Source: Clostridia bacterium (lineage in GTDB: Bacteria > Bacillota > Clostridia > UBA1381 > UMGS1253). Taken from it: 64,000 nt of DNA. Within the stretch, counting starts at the first letter, position 1. Every line of letters begins with the position of its first letter. Positions 5,685-62,950 of the stretch are shown in pieces. The notes beneath the pieces are model-generated. The model made no database searches. It was not told the DNA's origin and was given only the letters and a program-made list of their open reading frames with translations. The DNA lies in assembly GCA_045636325.1 (NCBI GenBank), contig JAZTXH010000016.1, positions 12,034 to 76,033 on the forward strand. The letters run 5' to 3'. The translations under genes and the position numbers were made by a program.

Positions 5685-5972
5685 TTACTCATCTGCTGCA
5701 TCTTCAGCTGAAAATTCCTGCGCTGCTTCGTGATACTTTTCAAGAATTGCTTCCTCAAGTTCGCGACGCGTAAGCGCGTTTATCGGATGTGCAATGTCTT
5801 TAAATTCACCCTCGGGTGTTTTTCTGCTGGGCATTGCAACAAAAAGCTTTTCGTTTCCTTCTATAACCTTGATGTCGTGAATCACTATGGCGTCGTCAAA
5901 AGTAACTGAAATTATAGCTTTCATCTTCCCTTCGGAATTCAGTTTTCTGACACGGATGTCTGTTATTTGCAT
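5685..5972 (-). CDS. spoVG: Septation protein SpoVG
   Basis: '[11 protein letters not shown]...[21 protein letters not shown]...[22 protein letters not shown]' is diagnostic. Confidence 0.95.
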
Positions 5973-11698: not shown

Positions 11699-11722
11699 AA
11701 CCGAATGAAAGGGCTGTATAAA

Positions 11723-12580
11723 ATGAAAATAAGCGAACTTTTTAAAGACAAGAAGCAAACCTTATCCTTTGAAGTTTTTCCGCCGAAAACAAGCGAAACA
11801 TTTGATACAATAAGCGATGCAATTTCCAAAATAGCATCCATTAAACCGGATTATATGAGTGTTACATATGGTGCCGGCGGAACAAATAGCGGTTTTGCAA
11901 AGCAGATTGCCGCAATGATAGCAGATTATAGTGTTATATCTCTGTCTCATTTGACCTGTATTGGAACAACTAAAGATTATATAAAAAATCATTTATCTGA
12001 ATTAAAGGCGTTGGGCGTTGATAATATTCTTGCCCTTCGAGGGGACTTGCCCGACGGTAATAAAAATGCGGTGGGTGCCTTTAAACACGCAAACGAACTT
12101 ACCGAGTATATAAAATCCGTGGGTGATTTTTGCGTAGGCGGTGCATGCTATCCCGAGATGCATCCCGAATCAGAAAATATGAAAACAGATATTGAGAACT
12201 TAAAGAGAAAAGTTGATGCAGGCTGTGATTTTCTTGTTACGCAAATGTTTTTTGATAATAATATATTTTATAAATACCTATTTAAAATCCGTGAATTGGG
12301 AATAACCGTTCCCGTTGTTCCGGGAATAATGCCTATTACAAATGCAAATCAGATAAAGCGAACCTGTGCTCTTTCAGGAACAAGACCTCCCTCAAAATTT
12401 ATGGCAATTCTTGATAAATTCGGTGATAATGAAAAGGCGATGCGTCAAGCAGGAATTGCATATGCAACAGAGCAGATTATAGACCTTTTAGCAAATGGTA
12501 TCGGGCATATACATGTTTATTCCATGAATAAACCCTTTGTGGCAGAAAATATACAGAATAATCTTTCAGATATTATTTAA
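11723..12580 (+). CDS. metF: Methylenetetrahydrofolate reductase
   Basis: 'LSFEVFPPKT' and 'GVDNILALRGD'. I chose the MKISELF start; an alternative in-frame ATG lies at 11705. Confidence 0.9.
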   Translation: MKISELFKDKKQTLSFEVFPPKTSETFDTISDAISKIASIKPDYMSVTYGAGGTNSGFAKQIAAMIADYSVISLSHLTCIGTTKDYIKNHLSELKALGVDNILALRGDLPDGNKNAVGAFKHANELTEYIKSVGDFCVGGACYPEMHPESENMKTDIENLKRKVDAGCDFLVTQMFFDNNIFYKYLFKIRELGITVPVVPGIMPITNANQIKRTCALSGTRPPSKFMAILDKFGDNEKAMRQAGIAYATEQIIDLLANGIGHIHVYSMNKPFVAENIQNNLSDII

Positions 12581-12594
12581 AGAGGCTGATAATC

Positions 12595-13266
12595 TTGTTT
12601 TGCAAAGCTTATAGTAAAAACGAAATAAAAATAGATAAAGCCGAAATGCTTCGGTATGCATGTTCAAAAAATGCAGATACCGATGATTTGTATTCTTCGG
12701 TTTTTGACGATGCAGTAAAAGCGGCAATAAATTTAGCCGAGCCTAAAGTTATTTATGAATTTTTCCCCATAAGCGTAAGAAATGACACAGTCAATTTTCC
12801 TGACTTTAGTGTAAAAAGCAAAAACCTTTCAAAAAATATGCACGCATCAGATATGGGAATAATTTTTGCCGCAACTTTAGGCATCAAATCAGAAAGAGAA
12901 CTTATAAAAAGAAAAACGGACAGCACATCTTTAGTTTTCATTAATGCTGCGTTTACGGCAATTTTAGAAGATATTATAAACCGTACATTTTTGGAGCTGA
13001 GAGAAATGCTTGCGAAAGAAAACAGATTTTTGCGCCCCCGTTTCAGCCCTGGTTACGGAGATTTTGAGCTCTTATTTCAAAAAGATATTTTCCGCGCACT
13101 TGACCTTGAGCGCAGAATGGGTATGGCCCTTACCGAAAATCTTTTTATGATACCGTCAAAATCCGTTACGGCAGTTTGTGCTGTGTCGAAAACAAACCAG
13201 ATGTGTCAGCTTTCGGGCTGCGAAGCATGCAACAAGAAAAATTCATGTCAGTTTTGCAGAATATAA
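12595..13266 (+). CDS. Stand-alone methionine synthase activation (AdoMet-binding, Met_synt_B12-like) domain protein
   Basis: 'RPRFSPGYGDFEL' signature and a Cys-rich C-terminus. TTG start 8 nt after AAGAGG. Confidence 0.7.
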   Translation: MFCKAYSKNEIKIDKAEMLRYACSKNADTDDLYSSVFDDAVKAAINLAEPKVIYEFFPISVRNDTVNFPDFSVKSKNLSKNMHASDMGIIFAATLGIKSERELIKRKTDSTSLVFINAAFTAILEDIINRTFLELREMLAKENRFLRPRFSPGYGDFELLFQKDIFRALDLERRMGMALTENLFMIPSKSVTAVCAVSKTNQMCQLSGCEACNKKNSCQFCRI

Positions 13267-13306
13267 AACTTATAGAAAGAAACAAAAAAGAAAGAAAGTG
13301 ATTAAT

Positions 13307-15703
13307 ATGACTGTTCTTGAAAAAATCCTGTCAGGACTTGTGTTTATTGATGGCGCTATGGGAAGCCTTTTACAGAAAGGAAATTTTTTAAAGCCCGGCG
13401 AATTTGCAGAAAATTTAAATATCACAAATCCTGATACAATAAAAGATATACACCTTTCATATCTTCAAAGCGGTGCGGATATAATCTTAACAAATACATT
13501 TGGAGCAAATCCGATAAAATTTGAAAATTACGAAGAAATTATTATAAATGCCGTAAAAATTGCAAAAACGTCTATATCGGATTATGGCAAAGAAGATAAG
13601 TATGTTGCTCTTGACATCGGACCTACGGGTAAGCTTTTAAAGCCTTTGGGTGATTTGGACTTTGAAGATGCGGTAGATGTTTTTAAAAAGGCAATAAAGG
13701 TTGGCGTTGATGCAGGAGTTGACCTTATTATGCTTGAAACCTTAAATGACAGTTATGAAACAAAGGCGGCTGTGTTAGCGGCAAAGGAAGCCTGCGACAT
13801 TCCGATTTTTGTTTCTAATGTGTATGATGCGAGTGGGAAGCTTATGACCGGTGCAGATGCTCTAGCAATGGTTTCCATGCTTGAGGGGCTTGGCGTTGAT
13901 GCAATCGGTATGAACTGCAGTCTTGGCCCGGTGCAGATGAAAGGCCTTGTAAGCGAAATTTATAAATGTGCATCAGTTCCTGTAATAGTAAGTCCCAATG
14001 CGGGACTTCCCCGTTTTGAAAACGGACAAACTGTGTACGACATTTCCGCCGAAGAATTTGCAGAGCATATGAAAGATATTGTAAATTCAGGCGCACGTAT
14101 TATCGGAGGCTGTTGCGGAACGACACCCGAATATATAAAATGCACATATGATGCAGTTAAAACTATACCACCAAAAAAAATTGAAAAGAAAAACAATGTA
14201 TGCATTTCTTCTTATACCCATGCGGTTTTATTTAAAGATACTCCCATTATAATAGGAGAGCGTATAAACCCGACCGGTAAGGCGCGCTTTAAGCAGGCAC
14301 TCAGAGAAAATGATATTGACTATATTTTAAATGAAGGTATAACTCAGGCGGACCGCGGAGCGCATGTGCTGGATGTTAATGTGGGATTGCCTGAAATATA
14401 CGAAAAAGAAGTGTTGAAAAAAGTTGTTTATGAGCTTCAGACAGTAACTGACCTGCCACTGCAGATTGATACCTCCGATTTTGATGCAATGGAGGCAGCA
14501 ATGCGAATTTATAACGGCAAACCACTTGTAAATTCTGTAAACGGCAAGCAGGAAAGCATGGACAAAATCTTTCCCCTTGTTAAGAAATACGGCGGATGCG
14601 TTATAGCTCTTACATTGGATGAAAACGGAATTCCCGAAACTGCCGAGGGCAGGTTTGAAATAGCGAAAAAAATTATTGCCCGCGCCGCTGATTACGGAAT
14701 TGATAAAAATAATATTATTGTGGACCCTCTTGCACTTACAATCAGTGCAGATAAAACATCTGCTGTAACAACACTTCGCGCAATACATGATATAACAAAT
14801 ATTTTAGGTGTTAAAACGAGCCTTGGTGTTTCAAATGTTTCGTTTGGCTTACCAAACCGCCCGCTGATAAATTCAGCTTTCTTTACAATGGCATTGTATA
14901 ACGGACTTTCGTGTGCAATAATAAATCCATCATCAGTTGAAATGATGTCAGCTTATTACAGCTTTACGGCTCTTTCAGGACTTGATGATAAATGCGAAAA
15001 ATATATAGATTTTGCATCAAATATCACATCTGAGGTAAAGCTTAGTCTGTCTGGTGACACAAAAGACGAGAGCTTGCGAGAGAGCTCTCTTTCATATGCT
15101 ATAATAAAGGGAATGAAGGAAATGGCGGCTCAGTGTGCAAAAGAGCTTTTGCAATCCACCTCTACTCTTGAAATAATAGACAATCACATTATTTATGCAT
15201 TAAATATTATGGGTGAAGGCTTTGAAAAAAACACAGTTTATCTTCCTCAACTTTTAATGAGTGCCGAAGCTGCAAAATGTGCATTTGAAGTGATAAAGCA
15301 AGCAATGCCCTCAGATGGTAAAAAGGACGCCGATGCATTTTGCATTGTTATAGCCACCGTTAAAGGCGATATTCACGATATAGGGAAAAATATAGTAAAG
15401 GCTTTGCTTGAAAACTTCGGTTTTAAGGTGATTGATTTGGGTAAGGATGTTGCCCCTGAAAAGGTAGTAGAGGCGGCAAAGAAATATAAAGCGCCCCTTG
15501 TGGGCTTGAGCGCACTTATGACCACAACTGTGCCCGCAATGGAAGAAACCATAAAACAGCTAAAACAAGAGTGCCCGTGGTGCAAAACAGTGGTCGGAGG
15601 AGCAGTGCTTACCCGCGACTATGCAAATTTAATACATGCTGACCGTTACGCAAAGGATGCTATGGAAACTGTGCGTTATGCAGAAGAATTAAAAAACAAA
15701 TAA
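13307..15703 (+). CDS. metH: Cobalamin-dependent methionine synthase lacking the activation domain (Hcy-binding, pterin-binding, B12-binding)
   Basis: 'GGCCGTTPEYI', the pterin-binding region, and the 'GDIHDIGKN' DxHxxG B12 motif. Start placed at MTVLEK. Confidence 0.9.
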   Translation: MTVLEKILSGLVFIDGAMGSLLQKGNFLKPGEFAENLNITNPDTIKDIHLSYLQSGADIILTNTFGANPIKFENYEEIIINAVKIAKTSISDYGKEDKYVALDIGPTGKLLKPLGDLDFEDAVDVFKKAIKVGVDAGVDLIMLETLNDSYETKAAVLAAKEACDIPIFVSNVYDASGKLMTGADALAMVSMLEGLGVDAIGMNCSLGPVQMKGLVSEIYKCASVPVIVSPNAGLPRFENGQTVYDISAEEFAEHMKDIVNSGARIIGGCCGTTPEYIKCTYDAVKTIPPKKIEKKNNVCISSYTHAVLFKDTPIIIGERINPTGKARFKQALRENDIDYILNEGITQADRGAHVLDVNVGLPEIYEKEVLKKVVYELQTVTDLPLQIDTSDFDAMEAAMRIYNGKPLVNSVNGKQESMDKIFPLVKKYGGCVIALTLDENGIPETAEGRFEIAKKIIARAADYGIDKNNIIVDPLALTISADKTSAVTTLRAIHDITNILGVKTSLGVSNVSFGLPNRPLINSAFFTMALYNGLSCAIINPSSVEMMSAYYSFTALSGLDDKCEKYIDFASNITSEVKLSLSGDTKDESLRESSLSYAIIKGMKEMAAQCAKELLQSTSTLEIIDNHIIYALNIMGEGFEKNTVYLPQLLMSAEAAKCAFEVIKQAMPSDGKKDADAFCIVIATVKGDIHDIGKNIVKALLENFGFKVIDLGKDVAPEKVVEAAKKYKAPLVGLSALMTTTVPAMEETIKQLKQECPWCKTVVGGAVLTRDYANLIHADRYAKDAMETVRYAEELKNK

Positions 15704-17288: not shown

Positions 17289-18731
17289 ATGAACGGTAAG
17301 TTAGTAATAAAGCTTAATTGCTATATATTGCTGTTTAATGCTTGCGTAATGCTTCTCCCCTTATTGGTAGCTTTGATATATAAAGAAAAATCAGGCCTTG
17401 CTTTTTTGCCCGCGATTCTTATAGCTTTGGCAATTTCAGTTCCCGTTTTAATTTTTTTAAAACCAAAAAACAAAGATATTTATGCTAAAGAAGGGCTGAT
17501 TACCGTAGCACTTGCATGGATTATATTAAGCTTTGTAAGCGGATTGCCTTTCTTTTTTTCAAAGGAAATCCCAAATCTTATAGACTGTTTTTTTGAAACA
17601 GCTTCCGGATTTACAACCACCGGCGCCACAATTCTTACAAATGTTGAAGCCTTAAGCCGATGCATGCTTTTCTGGAGAAGTTTTACTCACTGGATTGGCG
17701 GTATGGGTGTTTTGATGTTTGTTATGGCTCTTGCTCCATTGGCAGGAAACCATAACATGCAGCTTATAAAGGCAGAATCAGCAGGCCCTAAAATTGAAAA
17801 GCTTATGCCTAAAGCAAATACAACTGCAAAGGTTTTATACGGAATGTATGTCGGACTTACGGCTTTGCAGATTATATTTTTGCTTATAGGAAAAATGCCG
17901 CTTTTTGATGCAATAACCACTGCCTTTGGAACAGCCGGCACTGGTGGCTTTGGAATAAAAAATGACAGTCTTGCATCATACAGCATATATATCCAGTCCG
18001 TTGTAACGGTGTTTATGATTTTGTTTTCCATAAATTTTAATATGTATTTTTTTCTTATATTCAGAAAATTTTCAAGCATTTGGAAAAATGAAGAGTTGCG
18101 CACATTTGTATGCATTGTTTTTGCATCAATTTTGCTTATAACACTAAACAATTTCAAATTGTTTTCCTCACTGGGCGGTGCAATTCATCACAATGCATTT
18201 ACGGTTGCCTCTGTTATATCTACCTCGGGCTTTGCGACGGTTGATTTTAATTTGTGGCCTGAATTTTCAAAAGCAATACTGTTTATTTTAATGTTTGTGG
18301 GTGCCTGCGCAGGGTCAACCGGCGGTGGAATGAAGGTTTCAAGATTTATAATACTTGCAAAGTCACTCAAAAAAGAATTTATGCTGCTTATTCATCCGCG
18401 GAGTGTAAAAACTATTAATCTGAACGGAAAAAAGTTGGAAAACGATGTTGTAAAAAGAGTAAATTCATATATGATATGCTATCTTTTAGTATTTGTGGCA
18501 TCTTTTATCATTATTTCACTTGATAAATTTAATTTTGAAACTAATGTCACAGCTATTGCCGCTACGCTTAATAACATCGGTCCCGGTTTTGCTTCTGTAG
18601 GACCTGTTGAAAATTTTTCAGGATTTTCATGGTTTTCAAAATTAGTGCTTTCTTTTGATATGATATGCGGAAGGCTTGAGATTTTCCCCATGATGATTTT
18701 ATTTTTGCCTACAACATGGCGTAAAATGTAA
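17289..18731 (+). CDS. trkH: Trk-type potassium transporter membrane subunit TrkH
   Basis: 480-aa polytopic protein with 'GFTTTGAT' and 'GTGGFG' selectivity-filter-like motifs. It directly abuts trkA. Confidence 0.9.
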   Translation: MNGKLVIKLNCYILLFNACVMLLPLLVALIYKEKSGLAFLPAILIALAISVPVLIFLKPKNKDIYAKEGLITVALAWIILSFVSGLPFFFSKEIPNLIDCFFETASGFTTTGATILTNVEALSRCMLFWRSFTHWIGGMGVLMFVMALAPLAGNHNMQLIKAESAGPKIEKLMPKANTTAKVLYGMYVGLTALQIIFLLIGKMPLFDAITTAFGTAGTGGFGIKNDSLASYSIYIQSVVTVFMILFSINFNMYFFLIFRKFSSIWKNEELRTFVCIVFASILLITLNNFKLFSSLGGAIHHNAFTVASVISTSGFATVDFNLWPEFSKAILFILMFVGACAGSTGGGMKVSRFIILAKSLKKEFMLLIHPRSVKTINLNGKKLENDVVKRVNSYMICYLLVFVASFIIISLDKFNFETNVTAIAATLNNIGPGFASVGPVENFSGFSWFSKLVLSFDMICGRLEIFPMMILFLPTTWRKM

Positions 18732-18751
18732 AATTGTATAATAAAAAAACA

Positions 18752-18796
18752 CTCCTGTGACAGAATAATATAAGCTGCTACAGGAGAATTTTTTTG
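18752..18796 (+). terminator. Terminator of trkAH
   Basis: CTCCTGT...ACAGGAG stem followed by a T7 run. Confidence 0.7.
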
Positions 18797-18822
18797 TATT
18801 TTTGGAGGAATATAAAATCCTC

Positions 18823-18851
18823 TTTACAAAAACAAAAAAGTGTGATATTAT
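18823..18851 (+). promoter_or_regulatory. Sigma-A-type promoter in front of the large noncoding tract
   Basis: TTTACA, 17-nt spacer, TATTAT, with TGn extended -10. Confidence 0.45.
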
Positions 18852-18859
18852 ATACAATA

Positions 18860-19515
18860 GAATAGTGTATTTTACAGGCATCATAGAAAATGCGGCGGTG
18901 CAGTATTCTAGTCAGTTCTACTTGCTTTGAAGACGGGCCTAAAAATCCGTTAAAGGGCATATCGATGAAGTTTCTGGTGCTAGCTTTGAACGCCCAGTTC
19001 GGGGTTGGTGCTGGAAGTTAAGGTTATGGGGCGGCCTGCAATGGCATGCAGTTACTGACCCCCATTTCCGTGGAGACCTATTCTTGTGGCTGCCCCTGAG
19101 TCTTAGACTTAAGTCTTACTCAAGCAGTTACGGCTTAGGATTAAACCTGCATATCGGTGCTTTTCTGCGCTGGGTGCAGAGTAGCCTGCCTTGAGTGAAA
19201 TAAGAGGGATAACGGACAAACACTTGTCGCATCGGCCAATGCGTGAGCGTTATTGCTGTTTGAAACTTGTTTTGCAAAAGAGGATAGGAGCAAGTGTGAC
19301 TGTAGAGGAAAACTCCTAGGCTGTTGCTCTATCAGACATTTAAAGGATTGAAATGCGGACTGAGTGGCAGTCAGGTCACAAATGCGGTAACGTATTAGTA
19401 AAGTGTTTTAATGGGAAACCTCCTCTTTGGCGACATTGAGGAAACGCTTTGGGAAATCCTACCTGACCTTAAGCCGCAAAATTTACTTTAGGTGTTACCC
19501 CGCATTCTCTATGCT
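18860..19515 (+). ncRNA. ole: Large structured ncRNA, most likely OLE RNA (ends approximate)
   Basis: About 650 nt with no ORF. It is visibly more G+C-rich than its flanks and has many local and long-range complementary segments. The small membrane protein, dxs and tlyA follow it directly, which is the canonical OLE neighbourhood. Confidence 0.72.
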
Positions 19516-19545
19516 GCCTGTAATTTTTTAAAGTGGTGAATTATT

Positions 19546-20136
19546 TTGGGAAAAAGAAAAAGTTTAAAGGTTAAAAGCTCAGCCGGAAATATTAAGGTAA
19601 GTAATAAATGGACTGTGATTGTAACAATTCTTGCATTTGTGTTGTCTGTTATTTTTACAATTATAACAGACAGTGCCGAAAAGCTGCCGAATTTAGTAGC
19701 TATTACGGTGCTTTTTGTTATAGTTCTTTTAAGCATTATGTTTGATATGCTTGGTATGGCGGTTTCTACTGCAACAGAAGAGCCTTTTCACGCAATGGCA
19801 GCAAAAAAAAATCCGCAGGCAAAGGTTGCTATAAAAATTATCCGTTCTTCACAGCAGCTTTCAAGCCTTTTTAATGACGTTATAGGAGATATTGCCGGTA
19901 TTATATCAGGTGCTATGAGTGCGGCGATTGTTGCAAAAATTGCGACTGGCACAAGCGGAATAAATATGGTAATTGAGCTTTGTATGACAGGGCTTGTAGC
20001 GGCGGTTATGATTGGCGGGAAGGCTGCAGGCAAGGGTGTTGCCATGACAAATAATAACACAATAGTTTATATTATGAGTAATGTTATTTACTTTTTTACA
20101 AAACCATTTTCACTATTTAAAAGAAAAAAACGTTAA
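19546..20136 (+). CDS. oapA: Small polytopic membrane protein, candidate OLE-associated protein OapA
   Basis: 196 aa with four predicted TM segments and a basic N-terminus. The call rests on its position between the large ncRNA and dxs. The start (TTG) is uncertain. Confidence 0.6.
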   Translation: MGKRKSLKVKSSAGNIKVSNKWTVIVTILAFVLSVIFTIITDSAEKLPNLVAITVLFVIVLLSIMFDMLGMAVSTATEEPFHAMAAKKNPQAKVAIKIIRSSQQLSSLFNDVIGDIAGIISGAMSAAIVAKIATGTSGINMVIELCMTGLVAAVMIGGKAAGKGVAMTNNNTIVYIMSNVIYFFTKPFSLFKRKKR

Positions 20137-20152: not shown

Positions 20153-22015
20153 ATGTACAAAATTTTAGATAAAGTCGATTCTCCCAGCGATTTAAAAGCA
20201 CTTTCTTTTAAAGAACGCACGGAGCTTTGCTCAGAAATAAGGTCATTTTTAATAAATTCAGTTTCAAAAACCGGAGGGCATCTTGCATCAAATTTGGGTG
20301 TGGTAGAGATAAGTGTGGCACTTCACAGTGTTTTTGATATGCCCGAAGATAAAGTCGTTTTTGATGTAGGCCACCAGTGCTATACCCATAAAATTCTTAC
20401 GGGAAGAAAGGGTTTGTTTAAATTTTTAAGGCAGGAGGGTGGGCTTTCGGGATTTCCGAAAATAAACGAAAGCAAATATGACAGCTTTAATACCGGACAT
20501 AGCTCAACTTCTGTTTCTGCGGCATTAGGTCTTGCAAGAGCAAGGGACTTGGCGAATAAGGATCATAAGGTTATTGCACTTATAGGTGATGGTGCCATGA
20601 CGGGAGGCCTTGCATACGAGGCGCTTTGCGATGCGGGAAATTCAAACACAAACCTGATTGTGATTTTAAACGATAATGAAATGTCGATAACAAAAAATGT
20701 GGGAGGCTTAAGTGAGCATCTTTCAAGGCTTCGTACGCAGCCGTCATATGTTAAAACAAAGTCGGCAATTGAAAAGCTTGTTTTAAAAATGCCTAATGGT
20801 AAAGTTATTCACTCGGGTATGCGAAGAATAAAAAATTCCTTTAAGCGCGCTTTAATGCAGAAAAACATATTTGAAGAGCTGGGCTTTACATATCTTGGAC
20901 CTATAGACGGAAATGATTTGAAAAAGGCAGAGCAGATGCTCCTCCGTGCAAAAAATACAAAGGGTCCGGTTATTGTGCATATGTGTACCATTAAGGGAAA
21001 AGGCTATGCTCCGGCAGAGGAAAAGCCTCAGAACTTTCATGGTATTTCAAAGTTTGATGTTGATACGGGAAATGTTATAAGGGATAAAGTAAGGGCAGAT
21101 TATTCTGCAATTTTTGGTAGGCAGATTGTAAATCTTGCCCGCAAAAATGAGAAAATAGCGGTGATTTCACCGGCGATGATATTGGGCTCAGGACTTAAGA
21201 AATTTGCAAAAATTTATCCTGACAGAATGTTTGATGTTGGCATTGCAGAGGGCCATGCGGTTACATTTGCCGCAGGTCTTGCAATTGGCGGATATGTGCC
21301 TGTGGTGAGCGTTTATTCATCATTTCTGCAACGAGCATATGACCAGATTGTGCATGATGTTGCAATGCAGAATCTACACGTTGTGTTTGCAATTGACAGG
21401 GCAGGTGTTGTTGGTGCAGATGGTGAGACTCATCAGGGTGTTTTTGATATAGCATTTATGAATCATATTCCGAATATGGCAATTCTTGCGCCTGCTTGCT
21501 TTAAAGAGCTTTCTAAGATGCTTGACTATGCTGTAAATGAGCATAACGGCCCAATTGCAGTAAGATATCCGAGAGGAAATATGCAGTGTACGGAAATTAA
21601 TGAAGCGTTTGAATTTGGCAAGGCCTTAGTGGTTTATGAAGGCTCGGATATTACGATTGTTGCGGCAGGACCAATTTTAAAATATGCCTGCGAGGCAAAA
21701 GAGCTTTTGGAAAAGGAAAATATAAGTGCAGAAATAATAAATATAAGAACTATAAAGCCTATAGATGAAGAAACTATAATAAATTCCGCTAAGAAAACTA
21801 AAAAAGTTATAGTAATTGAAGATGGTCAGGACTTTGGAGGCCTTGCAAGTGCTGTTGATAGAATTATTGTTGAAAACTATGTATCGGCAAAGGTTGAAAA
21901 AAGAGGCTTTTGCAGCTTTGTTTCACAGGCAGGGCAGGAAAGAATATATGAAAAAAGCGGTATGACGTCTTCTGAAATTTTTAAAAGCGCGCAAAAAATG
22001 TGCAGAGGTGAATAA
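20153..22015 (+). CDS. dxs: 1-deoxy-D-xylulose-5-phosphate synthase
   Basis: 'GGHLASNLGVVE', 'IGDGAMTGG' and 'DVGIAEGHAVTFAAG'. Start placed at MYKILD. Confidence 0.95.
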   Translation: MYKILDKVDSPSDLKALSFKERTELCSEIRSFLINSVSKTGGHLASNLGVVEISVALHSVFDMPEDKVVFDVGHQCYTHKILTGRKGLFKFLRQEGGLSGFPKINESKYDSFNTGHSSTSVSAALGLARARDLANKDHKVIALIGDGAMTGGLAYEALCDAGNSNTNLIVILNDNEMSITKNVGGLSEHLSRLRTQPSYVKTKSAIEKLVLKMPNGKVIHSGMRRIKNSFKRALMQKNIFEELGFTYLGPIDGNDLKKAEQMLLRAKNTKGPVIVHMCTIKGKGYAPAEEKPQNFHGISKFDVDTGNVIRDKVRADYSAIFGRQIVNLARKNEKIAVISPAMILGSGLKKFAKIYPDRMFDVGIAEGHAVTFAAGLAIGGYVPVVSVYSSFLQRAYDQIVHDVAMQNLHVVFAIDRAGVVGADGETHQGVFDIAFMNHIPNMAILAPACFKELSKMLDYAVNEHNGPIAVRYPRGNMQCTEINEAFEFGKALVVYEGSDITIVAAGPILKYACEAKELLEKENISAEIINIRTIKPIDEETIINSAKKTKKVIVIEDGQDFGGLASAVDRIIVENYVSAKVEKRGFCSFVSQAGQERIYEKSGMTSSEIFKSAQKMCRGE

Positions 22016-22835
22016 AGTGGCGAAAAAGGTTCGTGTGGATGAACTTTTGGTAAGGCGTAATCTGGCGGCGGATGAAAATCATGCAAAGGCTTTGATTATG
22101 ACGGGAATCGTGTATAATGGTGAAGTAAGAATAAACAGCGGTGCAGAAAAGGTAAGCGAAGAAACTTACATAGAAGTGCGTGACAAGGGACAAAAATACG
22201 TAAGTCGCGGAGGTCTTAAGCTTGAAAAAGCGATGAATAGATTCACTATTAATTTAAATGGAATAGTTTGTATGGATATTGGTGCATCCACTGGAGGTTT
22301 TACGGATTGTATGCTTCAAAATGGTGCAAAAAAGGTTTACAGCGTTGATGTGGGCTATGGTCAGCTTGCATGGAAGCTGAGATGTGACGAGCGTGTTGTG
22401 AATATGGAGCGCACAAGTATAAAAAATGTAAATTCAGGTGTTCTGGGTGAAAAAATAGAATTTGCATCGGCAGATGTTTCGTTTATATCTTTAAAGCATG
22501 TGTTTGGTGCGGCAAAGGAATTTATGTCAGGGGGTGCACATATGGTGGCACTTATAAAACCCCAGTTTGAGGCAACTTATGAAGAAGTGGGTGAAAAAGG
22601 CGTTGTGCGTGACCCCAAGGTGCATATTAAAACCATAAAAAATGTGATTGAGTATGCCACGCAAAACGGGTTTTCAAGCCTTGATTTAACCTTTTCGCCA
22701 ATAAAAGGACCTGAAGGAAACATAGAATATCTTTGTTATTTAAAAAGAACAGATAACCCTGAAAATTATATAACGGAACAAAAAATTACAAATACGGTGG
22801 CCGAGGCGCACGAATCAAGCTTGTCAAGGCATTAA
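22008..22835 (+). CDS. tlyA: TlyA family rRNA (cytidine-2'-O)-methyltransferase
   Basis: S4-like N-terminus 'RVDELLVRRNL' and the FtsJ motif 'DIGASTGGFTD'. An alternative GTG start lies at 22017. Confidence 0.88.
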   Translation: MNKVAKKVRVDELLVRRNLAADENHAKALIMTGIVYNGEVRINSGAEKVSEETYIEVRDKGQKYVSRGGLKLEKAMNRFTINLNGIVCMDIGASTGGFTDCMLQNGAKKVYSVDVGYGQLAWKLRCDERVVNMERTSIKNVNSGVLGEKIEFASADVSFISLKHVFGAAKEFMSGGAHMVALIKPQFEATYEEVGEKGVVRDPKVHIKTIKNVIEYATQNGFSSLDLTFSPIKGPEGNIEYLCYLKRTDNPENYITEQKITNTVAEAHESSLSRH

Positions 22836-22859: not shown

Positions 22860-23069
22860 ATGTATTCGCCGGATATAGATAAAAAATGTACCACATGTCA
22901 GTTTGGAAATCTGGTGGTGGGTACCTTGGATGTAATGTGTATCAAATATGGCATTGTGCCTCACGATTACATTTGTAAAAAATATAAATACGATATTTTC
23001 AAGAAAAAAGTAAAGCGTAGAAAGCCCGTCGATAAAGAGTTTGAATCCGAAGATTTTTCAATTGATTAA
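22860..23069 (+). CDS. Small Cys-containing hypothetical protein
   Basis: 69 aa with a GGAGG RBS, followed by a strong terminator. I recognise no family. Confidence 0.55.
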   Translation: MYSPDIDKKCTTCQFGNLVVGTLDVMCIKYGIVPHDYICKKYKYDIFKKKVKRRKPVDKEFESEDFSID

Positions 23070-23096
23070 ATAAAATGAGCAGAAAATATAAAAAAT

Positions 23097-23134
23097 AAAA
23101 GACGACAATTTATATTGTGAATTGTCGTCTTTTA
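23097..23134 (+). terminator. Rho-independent terminator
   Basis: AAAAGACGACAATT / AATTGTCGTCTTTT. Confidence 0.85.
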
Positions 23135-23391: not shown

Positions 23392-26300
23392 ATGATGAAA
23401 AAAGTATCAAAGGTGCTTAGCCTTGTTTTAGCAATATGCATGTTATTAACTTGTGTTACAGTGCCCGCGTTTGCAGCTAAGAAAGAAGAAAAAGTCGTAG
23501 CTGAAGAAGTTGTAGCCGAAGTAAAAGTTAAGACAATTGATGATTACCCGGATGAAGCTTATCTAATGGATGCAAACGACAAAAATAGCATTGAGGATAT
23601 AAGCAAAAACCTCAAGGCAGTAACAACAAACACAAACGAGAATGCTTATTCAGCAGAATGGTCTCTTAAGAGCATAAAGCAACTTCAGCTTTCGGCTATT
23701 AAGGATATTAACGGCTTTGAAACTGTTGAATTTTATTTGTACGGTGATGAAAAGCATCCCACAACATTAAAATTTACTGTTTGGGCAAACGACCCTGATA
23801 CCGATGGCAGCGATTATTACGATGCAGGTAACTTTGAGGTTAAGCCGGGCTGGAATAAATATTCATTCAGCCTTTCAGAAATGCTTAACAAGAAGACTCG
23901 CCAGCCTAAGTCTATGGACAGCATAGATAACATCTCTATCTGGGCAACAGGTTGGGATCTTGACGCTAAAAACGATCTTGAAAACACAGTTTTATACCTT
24001 GACAGCGTAAAGCTTATAAAAGGCGAAAAACTTTTGACTGTTCCTAAAGTTAAAGTGCCTGAAACAGAAGCGGGTACAGCTAAGTATCTTGAATATGATT
24101 TTGAGGCAGAGGGAACTGATGCAACAAAGGGTATTATTCTTGCCCCCAAGTCAAACAAAATTGAAGTAAGAAAAAATAAGAATAATCATTTTCTTTCCAT
24201 TATGGGTCAGGAGACAACTGATAACTGCTTTGCTGACATCACAGGAATTAAGTACACCCGCCGTTATATGGTAATTCAGGGTGATTTTATGATTGAAAAC
24301 CTTGGTGGTTCTGTTCAACTTGCAACAATTAAAGACGGGACAAATGCACAGACTTACTTTGCCGGAGTTAATAAAGACGGTAAAATTACAGGTAATGGTA
24401 AATTCTTTGGCACAGCGGAAGAGGGTAAGTGGTTTAATCTAGCAGTTTGTGCGGACTTTGACAGTCTTGTATACACGGTATATATTGACGGAAAAGAAGT
24501 AATGAAGGATGTTCCTTTTAATAATCAGAATTCTTCATATATGACATATTACCGTGCATTTGTAGGTCCTAATTGCAAAACAATTCTTAACATTGACAAC
24601 CTTAGAGTATATGATGGTAAAACACCGGCTGATTACGTAAAGGCTGTTGACACTCCAAAACCAAGAAAAATAGACCTTGACTCTGTTATAAGCAAGACAC
24701 CTGCATATAAGCAGGTTATGGCTAATGCAGTATCAGAAGTTAAGGATGCCGTTTGCTTAAAGGTTAACTCTCCTTACGCTCTTGTTCGTCACGAGCAGAA
24801 GGCTATAGACGTAAACAATAAAGAGGTTTCTCCCTTTATTATTAACGGTAGAACTTTAGTTCCCGTTAGATTTATTGCAGAAGCTTTTGGAGCTGAAGTT
24901 GGATGGGACGATGCAACAAGAACTGTTACAGTAAAAAAGGATTCAGAACTTCTTACACTTGTAATTGGTTCAAATGTTTTAAACAAAAACGGTCAGGAAA
25001 TCATAATCGATGTTCCTGCCGAAATCTATAACGAAAGAACAATGCTTCCTCTTCGTGCAGTAACAGAAAACCTTGGCAAAAAAGTATTCTGGGACGATAT
25101 GGGACTAATCATTATCTCTAATAATGAAATTAACTTTACAAAAGAAAATGACCTTGAAAAAATGCTTGATATCATGGCAGGATTTACTTATGAAAGACCC
25201 GGTGCAGAAAAACTATTGGCCGACATCGTGGCTAAAACACCGAATCATCCCAGACTTCTTGCAACAGCTGAGGATTTTGCAAGAATCAGGAATTTAATGA
25301 GTTATGATGAAAATATCCAGAGTTGGGTATCAAGATTAATGAAAACAGCTGACAAGTATGTTACAGCAGCTCCCGACGAAGCAGAGCATACATACGCAGC
25401 CGATGCAGGTGGTAGACTTGCAAACAGCTGGAATATTCAGTCAAAGGCAACAAGCATGGGCATGGCTTATCAGCTAACAGGTGATAAAAAATATATTGAT
25501 GCTATTTGGTATACACTTGAAGATTTGTGTGACAAATCTAAGTGGGAGCATTGGCATCCCGGTCACTTCCTAAACGCAGCTGACGTTATATGGGGTGTTG
25601 CAATTGCATATGACTGGATGTATGACGGCTGGTCTGATTCACAGAGGGCAATAATCGAAGAAGCTCTTTTCGATTGCGGTGTTGAAGATTCTATTACAGC
25701 ATATCATGGTGCATCAGATTATCTTTCACCCCCCATGGGTCAGTTTCACAGAAGTGGTTGGTGGTCGCAGGGTAACAACTGGAATGCAGTTTGTAACTCA
25801 GGTGTAATGGCTGCGGGTATTGCAATGGCTACACACGAAAAATACGGTAAATATGCTATCCAGTGCGTTGATTATGCACTAAACGCTATGGAAATCGGTC
25901 TTCGTTGTTACGCACCTGATGGCGGTTACGAAGAAGGTGTTGGCTATTGGTCATACGGCACAAATCATGCTATTATGCTTATGGAAGCTCTAAATAAAGC
26001 AACAGGCACAAACTATGGTTTGTCTGACGCTCCCGGCTTTAGTGTTACATATGTAACACCTTTGTATATGGAAAGTAAGCAGGGTTCATTTAACTACTCA
26101 GACACCACCGTATCAAGAACAGATACAGCTTCACTTTTTTGGTTTGGTAAAGAATATTGTAACGCTCAGGTTAACGGCATAAGATTCAACGAGATTTCTA
26201 CGGCTGAAAAAGCTTCTTCTTACAAAGATATTCTATGGTACAATCCTGAAAACATTGACAAGAATGCAAGTTTGGTATTAGACTATAAGTTCTTTGGCAC

Positions 26301-27732
26301 AGATACATTTACAATGCGTTCGTCATGGACAGATGCTAACCAGTTATTCGGGGGTATTCATGGGGGCTCAAACACAACTAACCACTGTAACATCGACTCC
26401 GGAGTATTCATTCTTGATTCACTTAACACACGTTGGTTTATAGACCTTGGTTCTGATAACTACAATCTTCCCAACTACTGGTCAACAGGTGCAGGTGGTA
26501 AGAGATGGAAATACTATACACAGCGTGCAGAAGGTCATAACTGTTTCGTTATCAATCCTAACGAAAAAGAAGATCAGGTAATTGATTCTGTATGCCACAT
26601 CACAGAGCTTGTATCCAAGCCCCGTGGTGCATACGGCAAGGTAGACCTTACACCTGCATATGCTACAGATGTAACAAAGGCAACTCGCGGTATGATGTTT
26701 ACAGCTAACAGAAAAGCGGCTATTGTTCAGGATGAAATCACAATGAAGGCTCCTTCTGAGTTTTGGTGGTTTGCTCATACAAAGGCTGAAATTGAAGTTG
26801 CAGCCGATGGCAGAAGCGCAATCCTTACACAGGGTTCTAAGAAGCTTCATGCAGCAATCGTATCTGACAATCCGAACTTTAAGTTTACGGTAATGGATGC
26901 GGTATCACTACCCACATCGCCTGTTCCTGAAAAATCTGATACTCAGAAAGAAAAATCAAGAGAAGACATCAGAAAGCTTGCTATTCATGACAGTGGCGTA
27001 TCAAATGTAAATCTTGCAGTTGTATTCCAACCATTGGTTGGCGATATGGCAGAGTATACATATACTTACACAAATCTTGATAACTGGTCTATTCCGGACG
27101 GTGAAATTTTAACACCCCAGCTTACAGAACTTAAGGTAGAAGGTCAGACAATTGAAGGCTTTAATGCTAAAGTGACAAGCTACGAGGTGGTTCTTCCCTT
27201 CGGCACAACTCAGGTTCCTGAAATCGTGGCAACAGCTGATGCTTTAAGTAATGCAGTTTTAACACCTCCCACTGCAATTCCCGGAACAGCTACAATTAAG
27301 GTTATGAACAATGAAGACGCTAGCATGTATTCTGTATACAATGTATTAATGAGAGCTGCAGAAGAAGTCGAAATTGAAGTTTCTGACGCTCAGGAGGGGA
27401 ATCCCGGTCAGCAGTGTATTGATAAAGACCTTTCCACACGCTGGGCTGTTGAAAATGAAGCGTGGGGAATCTTCCGCTTTGCAATTCCGAAAACAATTTC
27501 TTCTGTTTGGCTTGCAACATGGAAAGCTGCTGAAAGAAAGCTTATCTTTGATATCGAAGTATCTGAAGACGGAGAAAACTTTACACAGGTTTGGAGCGGC
27601 CAAACTACTATTGATAAAGACGAACTTGAAGAAATCAAGATTCCTGCTGGCACATACAAGGCTGTGAAGATTAAGCTTCACGGCACAACAACAGGTACAT
27701 GGAACTCAATTCTTGAGGTAGAGTTTAAATAA
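23392..27732 (+). CDS. Large secreted multidomain protein: signal peptide, LamG-like region, copper-amine-oxidase-N-like stalk repeats, heparinase II/III-like lyase core, cadherin-like beta sandwich, F5/8 type C (discoidin) domain
   Basis: 1446 aa. It has a signal peptide, 'INGRTLVPVRFIAEAFGAEVGWDD' and 'ERTMLPLRAVTENLG' repeats, a Trp/His-rich lyase-like core, and a C-terminal discoidin-like 'DKDLSTRWAVE'. Confidence 0.75.
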   Translation: MMKKVSKVLSLVLAICMLLTCVTVPAFAAKKEEKVVAEEVVAEVKVKTIDDYPDEAYLMDANDKNSIEDISKNLKAVTTNTNENAYSAEWSLKSIKQLQLSAIKDINGFETVEFYLYGDEKHPTTLKFTVWANDPDTDGSDYYDAGNFEVKPGWNKYSFSLSEMLNKKTRQPKSMDSIDNISIWATGWDLDAKNDLENTVLYLDSVKLIKGEKLLTVPKVKVPETEAGTAKYLEYDFEAEGTDATKGIILAPKSNKIEVRKNKNNHFLSIMGQETTDNCFADITGIKYTRRYMVIQGDFMIENLGGSVQLATIKDGTNAQTYFAGVNKDGKITGNGKFFGTAEEGKWFNLAVCADFDSLVYTVYIDGKEVMKDVPFNNQNSSYMTYYRAFVGPNCKTILNIDNLRVYDGKTPADYVKAVDTPKPRKIDLDSVISKTPAYKQVMANAVSEVKDAVCLKVNSPYALVRHEQKAIDVNNKEVSPFIINGRTLVPVRFIAEAFGAEVGWDDATRTVTVKKDSELLTLVIGSNVLNKNGQEIIIDVPAEIYNERTMLPLRAVTENLGKKVFWDDMGLIIISNNEINFTKENDLEKMLDIMAGFTYERPGAEKLLADIVAKTPNHPRLLATAEDFARIRNLMSYDENIQSWVSRLMKTADKYVTAAPDEAEHTYAADAGGRLANSWNIQSKATSMGMAYQLTGDKKYIDAIWYTLEDLCDKSKWEHWHPGHFLNAADVIWGVAIAYDWMYDGWSDSQRAIIEEALFDCGVEDSITAYHGASDYLSPPMGQFHRSGWWSQGNNWNAVCNSGVMAAGIAMATHEKYGKYAIQCVDYALNAMEIGLRCYAPDGGYEEGVGYWSYGTNHAIMLMEALNKATGTNYGLSDAPGFSVTYVTPLYMESKQGSFNYSDTTVSRTDTASLFWFGKEYCNAQVNGIRFNEISTAEKASSYKDILWYNPENIDKNASLVLDYKFFGTDTFTMRSSWTDANQLFGGIHGGSNTTNHCNIDSGVFILDSLNTRWFIDLGSDNYNLPNYWSTGAGGKRWKYYTQRAEGHNCFVINPNEKEDQVIDSVCHITELVSKPRGAYGKVDLTPAYATDVTKATRGMMFTANRKAAIVQDEITMKAPSEFWWFAHTKAEIEVAADGRSAILTQGSKKLHAAIVSDNPNFKFTVMDAVSLPTSPVPEKSDTQKEKSREDIRKLAIHDSGVSNVNLAVVFQPLVGDMAEYTYTYTNLDNWSIPDGEILTPQLTELKVEGQTIEGFNAKVTSYEVVLPFGTTQVPEIVATADALSNAVLTPPTAIPGTATIKVMNNEDASMYSVYNVLMRAAEEVEIEVSDAQEGNPGQQCIDKDLSTRWAVENEAWGIFRFAIPKTISSVWLATWKAAERKLIFDIEVSEDGENFTQVWSGQTTIDKDELEEIKIPAGTYKAVKIKLHGTTTGTWNSILEVEFK

Positions 27733-53807: not shown

Positions 53808-53883
53808 GGGAGTATAGCTCAGCTGGGAGAGCATCTGCCTTACAAGCAGAGGGTCACAGGTTCGAGCCCTGTTACTCCCACCA
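53808..53883 (+). tRNA. tRNA-Val (TAC)
   Basis: Hand-folded cloverleaf with anticodon loop CTTACAA. CCA encoded. Confidence 0.92.
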
Positions 53884-53886
53884 TTT

Positions 53887-53963
53887 GGCCCGGTAGTTCA
53901 GTTGGTTAGAACGCCAGCCTGTCACGCTGGAGGTCGTGGGTTCGAGCCCCATCCGGGTCGCCA
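53887..53963 (+). tRNA. tRNA-Asp (GTC)
   Basis: Anticodon stem CCAGC/GCTGG, loop CTGTCAC. CCA encoded. Confidence 0.92.
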
Positions 53964-54016
53964 AATCATTCTTTATGAGTAAGTAGTTGTTGAGTTTTTT
54001 TGAGCTCAGCAGGTAT

Positions 54017-54092
54017 GCCTCTGTAGCTCAGTCGGTAGAGCAAGGGACTGAAAATCCCTGTGTCGATGGTTCGATTCCGTCCGGAGGCACCA
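54017..54092 (+). tRNA. tRNA-Phe (GAA)
   Basis: Anticodon stem AGGGA/TCCCT, loop CTGAAAA. CCA encoded. Confidence 0.92.
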
Positions 54093-54098
54093 AACTAT

Positions 54099-54173
54099 GC
54101 GGGAGTGGCTCAGTGGTAGAGCGTCACCTTGCCAAGGTGAACGTCGCGAGTTCGAATCTCGTCTTCCGCTCCA
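54099..54173 (+). tRNA. tRNA-Gly (GCC)
   Basis: Anticodon stem TCACC/GGTGA, loop TTGCCAA. CCA encoded. Confidence 0.92.
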
Positions 54174-54183
54174 ATTTTTTGAT

Positions 54184-54213
54184 ACAAAAGGTGCATATTA
54201 TTGCACCTTTTGT
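54184..54213 (+). terminator. Hairpin between tRNA-Gly and tRNA-Cys
   Basis: ACAAAAGGTGCA / TGCACCTTTTGT. Confidence 0.5.
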
Positions 54214-54236
54214 ATTAGAATATAATAAGTGAATAA

Positions 54237-54310
54237 GGCGCCATCGCCAAGTGGTAAGGCACGGGTCTGCAACACCCTTATCCCCAGTTCAAATCTGGGT
54301 GGCGCCTCCA
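54237..54310 (+). tRNA. tRNA-Cys (GCA)
   Basis: Acceptor GGCGCCA/TGGCGCC, anticodon loop CTGCAAC. CCA encoded. Confidence 0.88.
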
Positions 54311-54612: not shown

Positions 54613-55284
54613 ATGAATGTAGAAAGATTTTTGATTCAAGTAAAGAAAAACCTGCCGCAACATGAAGGTGTAATTACTTGGCTTGAAGATTCAGCATTAA
54701 AGGTTGGATATGGAGATTCAGGAAGTTTTGAAATCAGATATCCCGGAGGCATTTGTTATAATGCCGCAACTGAGAAGACCGATGAGTTTTACAAATTGGT
54801 CGAAGAAGCTGATAAAGCTTTCAAAACAGTTAAGGAATATATTGATTTGATGGACAAGGCTCCAGAACTCACAGCGAGAGACTTCAATATGCCATATAAG
54901 TTACTTGCAGAATTCAACGGAGTTGTACTTGGCGGAATTGAGCATCGGTCAAACAACACCTTTGAATTCACAACGTGGTCATACGCAGACAATTCTTTAT
55001 ATCACGGTCATTACTTTGACAATTACGAAAAAGCGAAGGAAGATTTCGCAGTAAGATCAGGATTGCTTCAATCAACAAAATTGTTTACGGACAAAGAGAT
55101 GATGCAGATATATCGTTGTACAGAAGATACATTAAACAACGGATATGAGTTGTCGAGTGAGCAGACTGAGGTATTAGAGCAGGTACAGGAGAAGATTAAG
55201 GAATCTATTCCGAACTTTGATGAAAAGCTTCGTGAAGAGATTGATCAGGAATGCGAAGAAGAAATGGAAATAAAAATGTATTAA
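54613..55284 (+). CDS. Hypothetical protein (acidic C-terminus)
   Basis: 223 aa with an AGGAAGGAGG RBS. From memory it resembles cargo proteins of Firmicutes conjugative elements; this is unverified. Confidence 0.6.
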   Translation: MNVERFLIQVKKNLPQHEGVITWLEDSALKVGYGDSGSFEIRYPGGICYNAATEKTDEFYKLVEEADKAFKTVKEYIDLMDKAPELTARDFNMPYKLLAEFNGVVLGGIEHRSNNTFEFTTWSYADNSLYHGHYFDNYEKAKEDFAVRSGLLQSTKLFTDKEMMQIYRCTEDTLNNGYELSSEQTEVLEQVQEKIKESIPNFDEKLREEIDQECEEEMEIKMY

Positions 55285-55299
55285 ATGGAGGTAAAACAA

Positions 55300-55719
55300 A
55301 TGCAAGAAGGAACAAGAGTATTAGCAGTTGCGTTGTCTAATGATGTATTTGATAAGTTAGATGACTATGTAAAAGAAATGCAGGTAACCAAGAAACAATA
55401 TGTTGCAGACCTTATAGAAAAGGATTTGGAACAGAAGCTTCAGCAGAAGCAGGAACCTGCAAAACAAATTGAGGTGAGACAGGCTCCCGATGGACAACAG
55501 GTTTGGGGCCGAGCAGAGGTCATAAATGCTTTGGATAGGTTTATGATTGAAAATGGCAGAATTCCTACACAGAAAGAATTCAAGAACGAAAACGGACTTC
55601 CGTCATACAATGCCGCAGGAAGAGCATTAGAAGTTTCTCCGGCAGAGTATTTGAAGGAGCGTTTCGATGAAGTTATGGCAGAGCAGCAGGAAGAAGCCGG
55701 GATGGGAATGAGTATGTAG
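55300..55719 (+). CDS. Hypothetical protein with a ribbon-helix-helix-like N-terminus and a C-terminal region resembling a homing-endonuclease-associated repeat
   Basis: Start at MQEGTRV behind GGAGG. 'ENGRIPTQKEFKNENGLPSYNAAGRAL'. Confidence 0.55.
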   Translation: MQEGTRVLAVALSNDVFDKLDDYVKEMQVTKKQYVADLIEKDLEQKLQQKQEPAKQIEVRQAPDGQQVWGRAEVINALDRFMIENGRIPTQKEFKNENGLPSYNAAGRALEVSPAEYLKERFDEVMAEQQEEAGMGMSM

Positions 55720-55781
55720 GCGGTATGTTCTATAAAAGAATGTACCGTCTTTTTTATTTTGAGAAATGGAGTGATTTGTAA

Positions 55782-56216
55782 ATGGTATCAAACGATTGTA
55801 AAGAAAAGTGCAGAGATTTTGGAATGCTCGTAGAGAACATAATCTGCATGGCAGATTGCTACGATGAGCCAATTGAAAAGTTCAGAAAGAGTATGTTCTA
55901 TAAACCGGAATTCGAGGACAGAGAAAAAATCATCCTTGATATGATTGATACAAGCAACAGAGTATCGGAAGAAATCAAACTTCTTTCTGTTGAAGACTTA
56001 AGAAAGCTTCAGGATGAATATGGAATTGAGTTAATCGGTTATACGGATATGCTTGCGACAGCGCTTCGAAAGGAGCCGTATTCCAATGACGATGTTAAAT
56101 ACAAGTGTGATGCGATAATGTCAATTGTGCTTGATATGCTGCATCGGGAATTAAGAGAGGATACAGTATATCAAAGGTTGGCAGAAGGAGTTGAACACGA
56201 AAATGTACAAGTTTAA
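55782..56216 (+). CDS. Hypothetical protein
   Basis: 144-aa ORF with no recognised motif. Confidence 0.5.
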   Translation: MVSNDCKEKCRDFGMLVENIICMADCYDEPIEKFRKSMFYKPEFEDREKIILDMIDTSNRVSEEIKLLSVEDLRKLQDEYGIELIGYTDMLATALRKEPYSNDDVKYKCDAIMSIVLDMLHRELREDTVYQRLAEGVEHENVQV

Positions 56217-62500: not shown

Positions 62501-62513
62501 GGAGGGTAGAAAA

Positions 62514-62939: not shown

Positions 62940-62950
62940 GGGGTGCTTTG

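Follow-up and report, generated by a model that had tools for sequence, protein, structure and literature searches.

Evidence for a full-length OLE RNA gene ahead of oapA, dxs and tlyA in an uncultured Clostridia lineage

Introduction

What is encoded by a tract of about 650 nt that holds no substantial open reading frame (ORF) and follows the gene pair trkA-trkH? This question is raised by a 64,000-nt stretch of DNA from a Clostridia bacterium (assembly GCA_045636325.1, contig JAZTXH010000016.1, positions 12,034 to 76,033 of the forward strand), which was analyzed over its whole length and is referred to here as the window. The preliminary description of the window, made from its letters alone, had read the tract as a gene for OLE (ornate, large, extremophilic) RNA. 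Computational analysis of the tract, its predicted fold and its neighbors led us to conclude, with a probability of roughly 0.96, that positions 18879-19517 are a full-length gene of this already known RNA family.

Identity of the tract

The window was scanned with cmscan against all 4227 Rfam families. The OLE family (RF01071) was matched on the + strand at 18879-19517, a segment of 639 nt, with 483.2 bits and an E value of 1.1e-138, and the match extended over model positions 1-616 of 616. This score is approximately 10 times the gathering score of the family, which is 50. Comparison with the OLE covariance model was the check proposed in the preliminary description, and the match ends within 20 nt of the coordinates given there. 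The window RNA has 234 of the 249 consensus positions that Rfam writes in upper case as highly conserved, and 144 of the 159 base pairs of the model are canonical. These results demonstrate that the tract belongs to the OLE family.

The features by which the tract had been recognized from its sequence alone, namely the gap in ORFs, the G + C content and the gene context, were also re-examined. No ORF of 60 amino acids (aa) or more was present on either strand of the core at 18961-19508, where the internal ORFs reach 42-50 aa only. The ORFs of at least 60 aa that touch the tract are three on the minus strand (18699-18884, 18778-18960 and 19509-19736), exactly those that had been listed as clipping its ends. 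The G + C content was 0.43-0.49 across 18900-19500 (0.47 for the OLE match) compared with 0.30-0.39 in the flanks, in agreement with the enrichment described earlier.

Size and G + C enrichment are the only properties that would also suit another large structured RNA, such as ROOL, GOLLD, raiA or a group II intron, or an unannotated protein gene. We give this explanation practically no chance of being correct, since none of these families, nor any other large RNA family, reached its threshold anywhere in the window, and the core contains no ORF longer than 50 aa. The remaining Rfam matches in the window were six tRNAs. ROOL, GOLLD and group II introns were the families that the preliminary description itself had named as competitors of the OLE reading.

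Conserved fold and covariation

To place the window RNA within its family, 120 OLE loci from different GTDB species were gathered via a conserved 33-nt pattern, and the closest relatives, designated L125, L122, L127 and L129, were gathered through homologues of OapA, the membrane partner of OLE RNA. The OLE RNAs of these four loci share 89.5, 87, 78.6 and 80% identity, respectively, with that of the window. An alignment of 40 full-length OLE RNAs (the window and 39 others) was then scored against the Rfam structure, to which helices P1, P2 and P3 were added; these are omitted by the Rfam model, were derived from the alignment and were named by matching them to the domain description in the text of PMC12265935.

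Standard pairs occupied 86.2% of the cells over 192 base pairs in 24 scored helices, compared with 40-45% when the partners were slid by 1-3 columns. Compensatory changes on both sides were found at 130 of the 192 pairs, and none of 500 shuffles reached any of the observed measures. In addition, 160 alignment columns are invariant across all 40 RNAs, including that of the window, in keeping with a family in which about 25% of positions are near-invariant. The fold of the window RNA is intact, and its elements are listed in Table 1.

Among the long-range helices, P1 was paired in 90.9% of cells with compensatory changes at seven of eight pairs, and P2 was paired in 100%, with one of its nine pairs covarying (UA in 23 RNAs, CG in 12 and UG in 5). 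Compensatory changes were observed at 12 of the 16 pairs of P3, a helix that Lyon and Breaker proposed to span the membrane (PMC12265935). In the predicted architecture, P1 and P2 would close the molecule, and P3 would link its two domains, P4-P9 on the 5' side and P10-P15 on the 3' side.

The landmark motifs of the family are present as well. The A-rich loop L4, which forms dimer bridge B1 in structures determined by cryo-electron microscopy (PMC12286853), is invariant in 40 of 40 RNAs and is part of a longer stretch, CCUAAAAAUCC, at 18938-18948. It is followed by the joining region J4/4a/5, nearly all positions of which are invariant in the alignment and which holds the proposed OapA site together with one strand of a kink-turn (PMC12286853, PMC12265935). 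The second strand of this kink-turn, which is proposed to bind OapC, is J6/7 (PMC12286853), conserved in the alignment as CCGYGGAGR. Hairpins P5 and P8 were paired in 99.1 and 93.6% of cells, with 11 and 10 covarying pairs, respectively. The L6 region reads CAAUGGCAUG at 19039-19048. At the tip of the P9 arm lies the palindromic GGCC of L9.3, the kissing-loop dimer bridge B3 (PMC12286853), and the 3' domain contains the P13 hairpin, whose GNRA loop is recognized by OapB (PMC7936274). The sequences of the dimerization elements L4, L5/L6 and L9.3 are thus all in place, and dimerization itself would be expected by homology.

The sole structural peculiarity of the window RNA is a 19-nt extension of P7, which forms an extra nested stem-loop. 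The P7 region folds at -24.7 kcal/mol (z = -4.2), and its length is highly variable among OLE RNAs (alignment columns 214-290).

Two pairings had been offered earlier as examples of complementary segments. The first, CTGCA with TGCAG near 19040-19055, corresponds to helix P6.1 of the conserved fold, which was paired in 99.5% of cells with three of five pairs covarying. The second, AAATGCGGTAAC at 19380-19391 against GTTACCCCGCATT at 19494-19506, is a real complementarity of 11 bp with a 2-nt bulge, but it is not a conserved helix: 54.8% of cells pair, compared with 36-43% in slid controls. The conserved fold instead pairs 19497-19505 with the 5' end (P1) and 19486-19496 with 19335-19345, while 19378-19399 forms a local hairpin. 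The complementarity arises because the distal half of P1 is AUGCGG/CCGCAU in this clade and by chance repeats the AUGCGG of that hairpin (19383-19388).

The hexamer AUGCGG occurs three times in the window RNA, at 18890-18895, 19353-19358 and 19383-19388, and the first and third copies could compete for the single CCGCAU at 19500-19505. This competition for the same strand is shared by L125, but L122, L127 and more remote OLE RNAs do not show it, and it is therefore probably coincidental.

The departures from the family consensus could also be taken as signs of a decaying, non-functional OLE remnant, given that the window RNA departs from the Rfam consensus at 15 of the 249 highly conserved positions and that 15 of the 159 model pairs are non-canonical. 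However, most of these differences are common to other OLE RNAs or are compensated, as in the U-G pair 18907-19320 of P2. Every helix and landmark loop is present, the relatives at 78-90% identity keep the fold, and the adjacent oapA gene is intact with all of its invariant residues. Neither frameshifts in oapA nor loss of helices was seen, and decay is accordingly an extremely improbable explanation for a tract that we read as an intact OLE RNA gene.

Table 1. Positions of the OLE RNA elements, signals and downstream genes in the window
Feature	Position	Strand	Partner or content	Basis
Intrinsic-terminator-like hairpin and U-run	18752-18795	+	ends the metH-trkA-trkH side	folding
Promoter-like site	18823-18851	+	-35 TTTACA (18823-18828), 17-nt spacer, extended -10 TGaTATTAT (18843-18851)	10/12 consensus matches
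OLE RNA gene, full-length type	18879-19517	+		RF01071 match, consensus matches, canonical pairs, covariation over 40 RNAs
OLE structured core	18890-19505	+	616 nt, P1 5' strand to P1 3' strand	pair projection
P1, 5' strand	18890-18899	+	pairs with 19497-19505; 9 bp, C18896 bulged; closes whole RNA	9/9 pairs canonical; outside Rfam model
P2, 5' strand	18900-18911	+	GCAG..UCUAG; pairs with 19316-19324	9/9 pairs canonical
P3/P3.1, 5' strand	18913-18928	+	pairs with 19287-19302	15/16 positions canonical
P4 hairpin	18932-18951	+	A-rich loop L4 CCUAAAAA at 18938-18945	6/6 pairs
J4/4a/5	18952-18970	+	conserved joining region AAAGGGCAUAUCGAUGAAG	alignment
P5 hairpin	18971-19017	+	conserved loop GCCCA (18992-18996)	20/20 pairs canonical
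P6/P6.1 hairpin	19022-19069	+	conserved loop AAUGGC	12/14 pairs canonical
J6/7	19068-19076	+	CCGUGGAGA	alignment
P7 hairpin	19077-19139	+	19-nt insertion 19102-19120	insertion relative to Rfam model
P8 hairpin	19147-19179	+		12/13 pairs canonical
P9 long arm	19188-19284	+	terminal loop L9.3 GGCC (19235-19238)	30/35 pairs canonical
3' domain (domain 2)	19305-19496	+	hairpins 19305-19315 and 19325-19334; multi-helix domain 19335-19496	large domain 44/47 canonical
P13 hairpin	19421-19442	+	9 bp, GNRA loop GCGA (19430-19433); OapB-binding element by homology	within 3' domain
Ribosome-binding site for oapA	19535-19541	+	GTGGTGA	sequence conservation
oapA	19546-20136	+	196 aa, TTG start; membrane partner of OLE RNA	28 nt after OLE match
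dxs	20153-22015	+	1-deoxy-D-xylulose-5-phosphate synthase	DXP_synthase_N, 1.5e-116
tlyA	22008-22835	+	rRNA cytidine-2'-O-methyltransferase	TIGR00478, 231.9 bits (cut-off 185.8); FtsJ
Clade-specific ORF	22860-23069	+	69 aa, last gene of unit	homologues in relatives
Strong terminator hairpin	23096-23133	+	ends OLE-oapA-dxs-tlyA-ORF unit	-21.5 kcal/mol, z = -7.45; U-run after

Organization of the transcription unit

The OLE RNA would be the first element of a unit consisting of OLE, oapA, dxs, tlyA and a small ORF, running from the promoter upstream of the RNA to the strong terminator behind the small ORF. The promoter noted in the preliminary description, TTTACA-17-TATTAT, is the best consensus match of the region and is accompanied by an upstream TG. 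The window and the loci L125, L122, L127 and L129 all retain the motif CTTTACAAA...TGnTAT(T/A)(A/T)T, while the upstream DNA is unrelated in each of them. From its sequence, this putative promoter would be of the sigma-A type, and it is probably the start of the OLE unit. Its retention next to unrelated DNA supports the view that, in this Clostridia clade, OLE-oapA-dxs-tlyA may be an autonomous unit that has a conserved promoter to itself and lacks ispA and xseAB.

A simple scan found no terminator-like site on the + strand between OLE and oapA. The same scan missed both real terminator hairpins, since their loops exceed its 8-nt loop limit, and these were recovered by folding. With a gap of 28 nt and no terminator between them, OLE would be the 5' part of the oapA primary transcript. 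The window shares the ribosome-binding site GTGGTGA and the TTG start codon of oapA with L125 and L122, and those of L127 are similar.

This arrangement could suggest that the main role of the tract is in cis, as a structured 5' leader controlling oapA-dxs-tlyA, and that it is not a free-standing RNA. We regard a leader as very unlikely. Members of the OLE family are abundant, membrane-localized RNAs that bind proteins and dimerize in vitro, and in most species OLE is an internal element of an operon, placed behind ispA, and does not form the 5' end. Moreover, no known leader comes near the size of a conserved fold of 600 nt with approximately 25 helices.

The downstream order of a small protein with four transmembrane segments, dxs and tlyA, on which the OLE reading had partly been built, is present, and the first of these genes is, judged from its product, a bona fide oapA. 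Nine residues (D67, D111, V112, G114, D115, G122, G158, K159 and K163) are invariant in 97 ORFs located directly downstream of OLE, and all of them occur in the window OapA. They include both aspartates, 100% conserved, of the DxxxD motif, which reads D111-V-I-G-D115 in this protein. By Kyte-Doolittle hydropathy only, OapA has four hydrophobic stretches, at residues 18-77 (read as two segments), 112-134 and 137-160, and both of its termini are basic (MGKRKSLKVK... and ...FKRKKR). The sole domain match was a weak one to CNNM (PF01595) over residues 56-188, with 23.5 bits against a cut-off of 28.4 and an E value of 5e-5; a relationship of OapA to CNNM/DUF21 has been published (PMC11332333). The search for homologues of OapA returned 1821, the named ones coming from Clostridia or Oscillospiraceae metagenome-assembled genomes, and no sequence match in the PDB was found at E ≤1. 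Downstream of OLE in the 120 other loci, oapA was found in 99, dxs in 75 and tlyA in 59.

The dxs ORF as listed starts at 20081 and overlaps oapA by 56 nt. The relatives encode Dxs proteins of 616-621 aa that begin 15-20 nt past the oapA stop codon, and for this reason the start is probably the ATG at 20153 (Met25), a few nucleotides behind an AGGAG motif.

The last gene of the unit is a clade-restricted ORF, with copies in L125 (10276-10485), L122 (10333-10548) and L129 (6001-6210). Its products, 69-71 aa in length, share four cysteines that are invariant, a highly basic segment, KKYKYDIFKKKVKRRKP, and the residues DFSID at the C terminus, and no Pfam or NCBIfam family was found for them. Seven homologues were identified among 5.8 billion proteins, located after tlyA in the OLE operon wherever the context was read; neither L127 nor any of the 120 GTDB OLE loci has the ORF. 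It could be imagined that its product is a new partner of the OLE ribonucleoprotein, specific to this lineage and acting as a zinc-ribbon-like RNA binder, and not an unrelated hitch-hiker next to tlyA, but we consider this unlikely.

Upstream neighbors

The gene trkH (17289-18731) lies on the same strand and ends 148 nt before the OLE match. The terminator that had been placed after trkH was found as a hairpin at 18752-18786 with the stem CTCCTGTG.CAG / CTG.CTACAGGAG followed by TTTTTTT; it folds at -19.3 kcal/mol (z = -3.5), and none of 200 shuffles folded as well.

The presence of trkA-trkH upstream of OLE, mentioned in the preliminary description as a departure from the usual arrangement, is real and unusual. 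Upstream DNA of at least 1.2 kb was available for 95 loci. The ORF directly 5' of OLE encodes a polyprenyl synthetase (ispA) in 66 of them and a DUF212 protein in 16; the others are singletons, and TrkH was found in none. A neighborhood with ispA, accompanied or not by xseAB, upstream and dxs-tlyA downstream is thus frequent in the family, but it is no defining trait. Likewise, TrkA or TrkH was found in none of the 120 other OLE loci within the upstream DNA covered, which was at least 1.7 kb in 88 and at least 3.2 kb in 75 of them. The second commonest direct upstream gene, which encodes a DUF212 / divergent PAP2 protein on the same strand (loci L002-L121), is a membrane phosphatase-like neighbor that fits the isoprenoid and membrane theme of the cluster.

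A functional coupling of the OLE ribonucleoprotein to Trk potassium uptake, through co-regulation or cation homeostasis, might be proposed on the basis of the short distance and shared strand, the link between the OLE ribonucleoprotein and Mg2+ homeostasis, and the resemblance of OapA to CNNM Mg2+ transporters. However, a terminator hairpin and a separate conserved promoter intervene between trkH and OLE, and the four closest relatives have four different upstream genes, encoding SLH proteins, fucose isomerase, an ACT-domain protein and, on the other strand, rubredoxin. Our literature search also found no paper connecting OLE RNA to potassium transport. Since the adjacency is not kept even in the closest relatives, it carries no functional signal, and a functional link to trkAH, which has a very low probability, was rejected. 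We conclude that trkA-trkH is a separate terminated unit placed next to the OLE unit by lineage-specific rearrangement.

Upstream of trkA, a methionine/folate cluster on the + strand (11705-15703) contains metF (MTHFR), a 223-aa ORF and metH. The 223-aa ORF weakly matches the activation domain of B12-dependent methionine synthase, while metH has homocysteine-, pterin- and B12-binding domains and no activation domain of its own, so that the pair looks like a split MetH. No riboswitch was detected at this cluster by Rfam at the gathering threshold.

Proposed function and weight of the assignment

A working model can be transferred by homology from Halalkalibacterium halodurans, Clostridium acetobutylicum and C. 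botulinum (PMC12265935, PMC12286853, PMC7936274, PMC11332333). According to this model, the OLE RNA would form a homodimer through its A-rich L4 loops, contacts among L5, L6 and L7, and the GGCC kissing loop of L9.3, and would bind dimers of OapA, encoded directly downstream, at the membrane. OapB would be recruited at the GNRA hairpin of P13, and OapC at the kink-turn formed by J4a/5 and J6/7. The resulting membrane-bound ribonucleoprotein may aid tolerance of short-chain alcohols, cold, excess Mg2+ and poor carbon sources.

Several points weigh against the assignment or its functional extension. Neither ispA nor xseAB was found in the 64-kb window, of which 62 ORFs were scanned with Pfam, and the same scan found no KOW or L7Ae family that could represent oapB (ybzG, KOW motif) or oapC (kink-turn binder). 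The absence of oapB and oapC is uninformative, since the window is only a small part of the genome. The nearest matches are metagenomic contigs. The lineage is uncultured, and expression, processing, dimerization, protein binding, membrane localization and a stress function are all extrapolated from the literature. To our knowledge, no biochemical activity has been assigned to the OLE ribonucleoprotein in any species, model species included. Set against these points are the full-length covariance-model match, the covarying fold and the linkage to an intact oapA, which were observed directly and carry the identification of the tract as an OLE RNA gene.

Host and other features of the window

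SpoVG (5685-5972, minus strand) and an operon of spoIIAA (STAS), spoIIAB (anti-sigma kinase) and a sigF-like gene (62165-63634, + strand) indicate that the host is a spore-forming member of Bacillota. All of the 120 pattern-matched OLE loci that carry a taxon name are from Bacillota, and OLE hosts are typically anaerobic or extremophilic members of that phylum. An endospore-forming host is also in line with the correlation of OLE with sporulation genes that has been published. The genes mpfA, nadK, argR and recN were not found among the 62 window ORFs scanned with Pfam. Species with a full-length OLE RNA would be expected to carry oapB and oapC and to have no mpfA.

Past the terminator of the OLE operon, the next transcription unit opens with the gene for a secreted protein of 1446 aa (23392-27732, +), probably a surface polysaccharide lyase. 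Its domains are Cu_amine_oxidN1 (stalk-like), heparinase II/III C-terminal and F5/8 type C. Elsewhere in the window, five tRNA genes (53808-54307, +) are followed by four ORFs of 124-223 aa (54613-56565, +) that match no Pfam family apart from a weak homing-endonuclease-repeat match. The segment beside the tRNA cluster may be integrated or mobile.

Comparison with known systems

OLE RNA is a well-catalogued family: Fernando and Breaker reported 2,822 OLE matches among the GTDB genomes of Bacillota, and the non-redundant set of Kretsch et al. comprises 8,585 sequences. The window copy has every canonical feature, and the finding therefore matters little beyond correct annotation. What it adds is a lineage in which OLE-oapA-dxs-tlyA is self-contained, with its own promoter, and detached from ispA. 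This shows that the oapA-dxs-tlyA linkage is the stable part of the neighborhood and that what lies upstream can change freely. Only two points can be regarded as mildly new, namely the self-sufficient organization of the operon in this clade and the cysteine-rich small ORF restricted to it. The case also illustrates that an OLE gene can be recognized from an ORF gap, G + C content and gene context.

Compared with the OLE RNAs of H. halodurans and C. acetobutylicum, the window RNA shows full coverage of the model and all helices from P1 to P15. It shares with the full-length type L4, L5, L6, L9.3, the kink-turn strands, the P13 GNRA hairpin and the downstream genes oapA, dxs and tlyA. It differs from the usual loci in having trkH behind a terminator instead of ispA/xseAB, a promoter of its own that is conserved in the clade, the P7 extension and the clade-specific ORF at the operon end. 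In H. halodurans, OLE has been reported to lie inside one long polycistronic transcript.

Reduced OLE variants share the family and the conserved core nucleotides with the window RNA, but their P7, P8 and P9 are shortened or absent. In variant 1 the OapB site at the P13 tip is often missing, and variant 2 lacks P7 and P8. Since its P7 is long (63 nt), P8 is present, P9 is complete and the GNRA hairpin of P13 is intact, the window RNA is not a reduced variant; the presence of P8 in particular excludes variant 2.

The OapA of the window is weakly similar to the CNNM (DUF21) domain of the Mg2+ transporters MpfA, CorB and CorC. Unlike these transporters, it has no CBS or CorC domains, four rather than three predicted transmembrane segments, and the OapA-specific DxxxD motif. 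Finally, ROOL and GOLLD resemble OLE in being large, highly structured, non-coding RNAs that form homo-oligomers in vitro, but they are unrelated to it in sequence and fold, are often associated with phages, and assemble into cages of 8 or 14 subunits.

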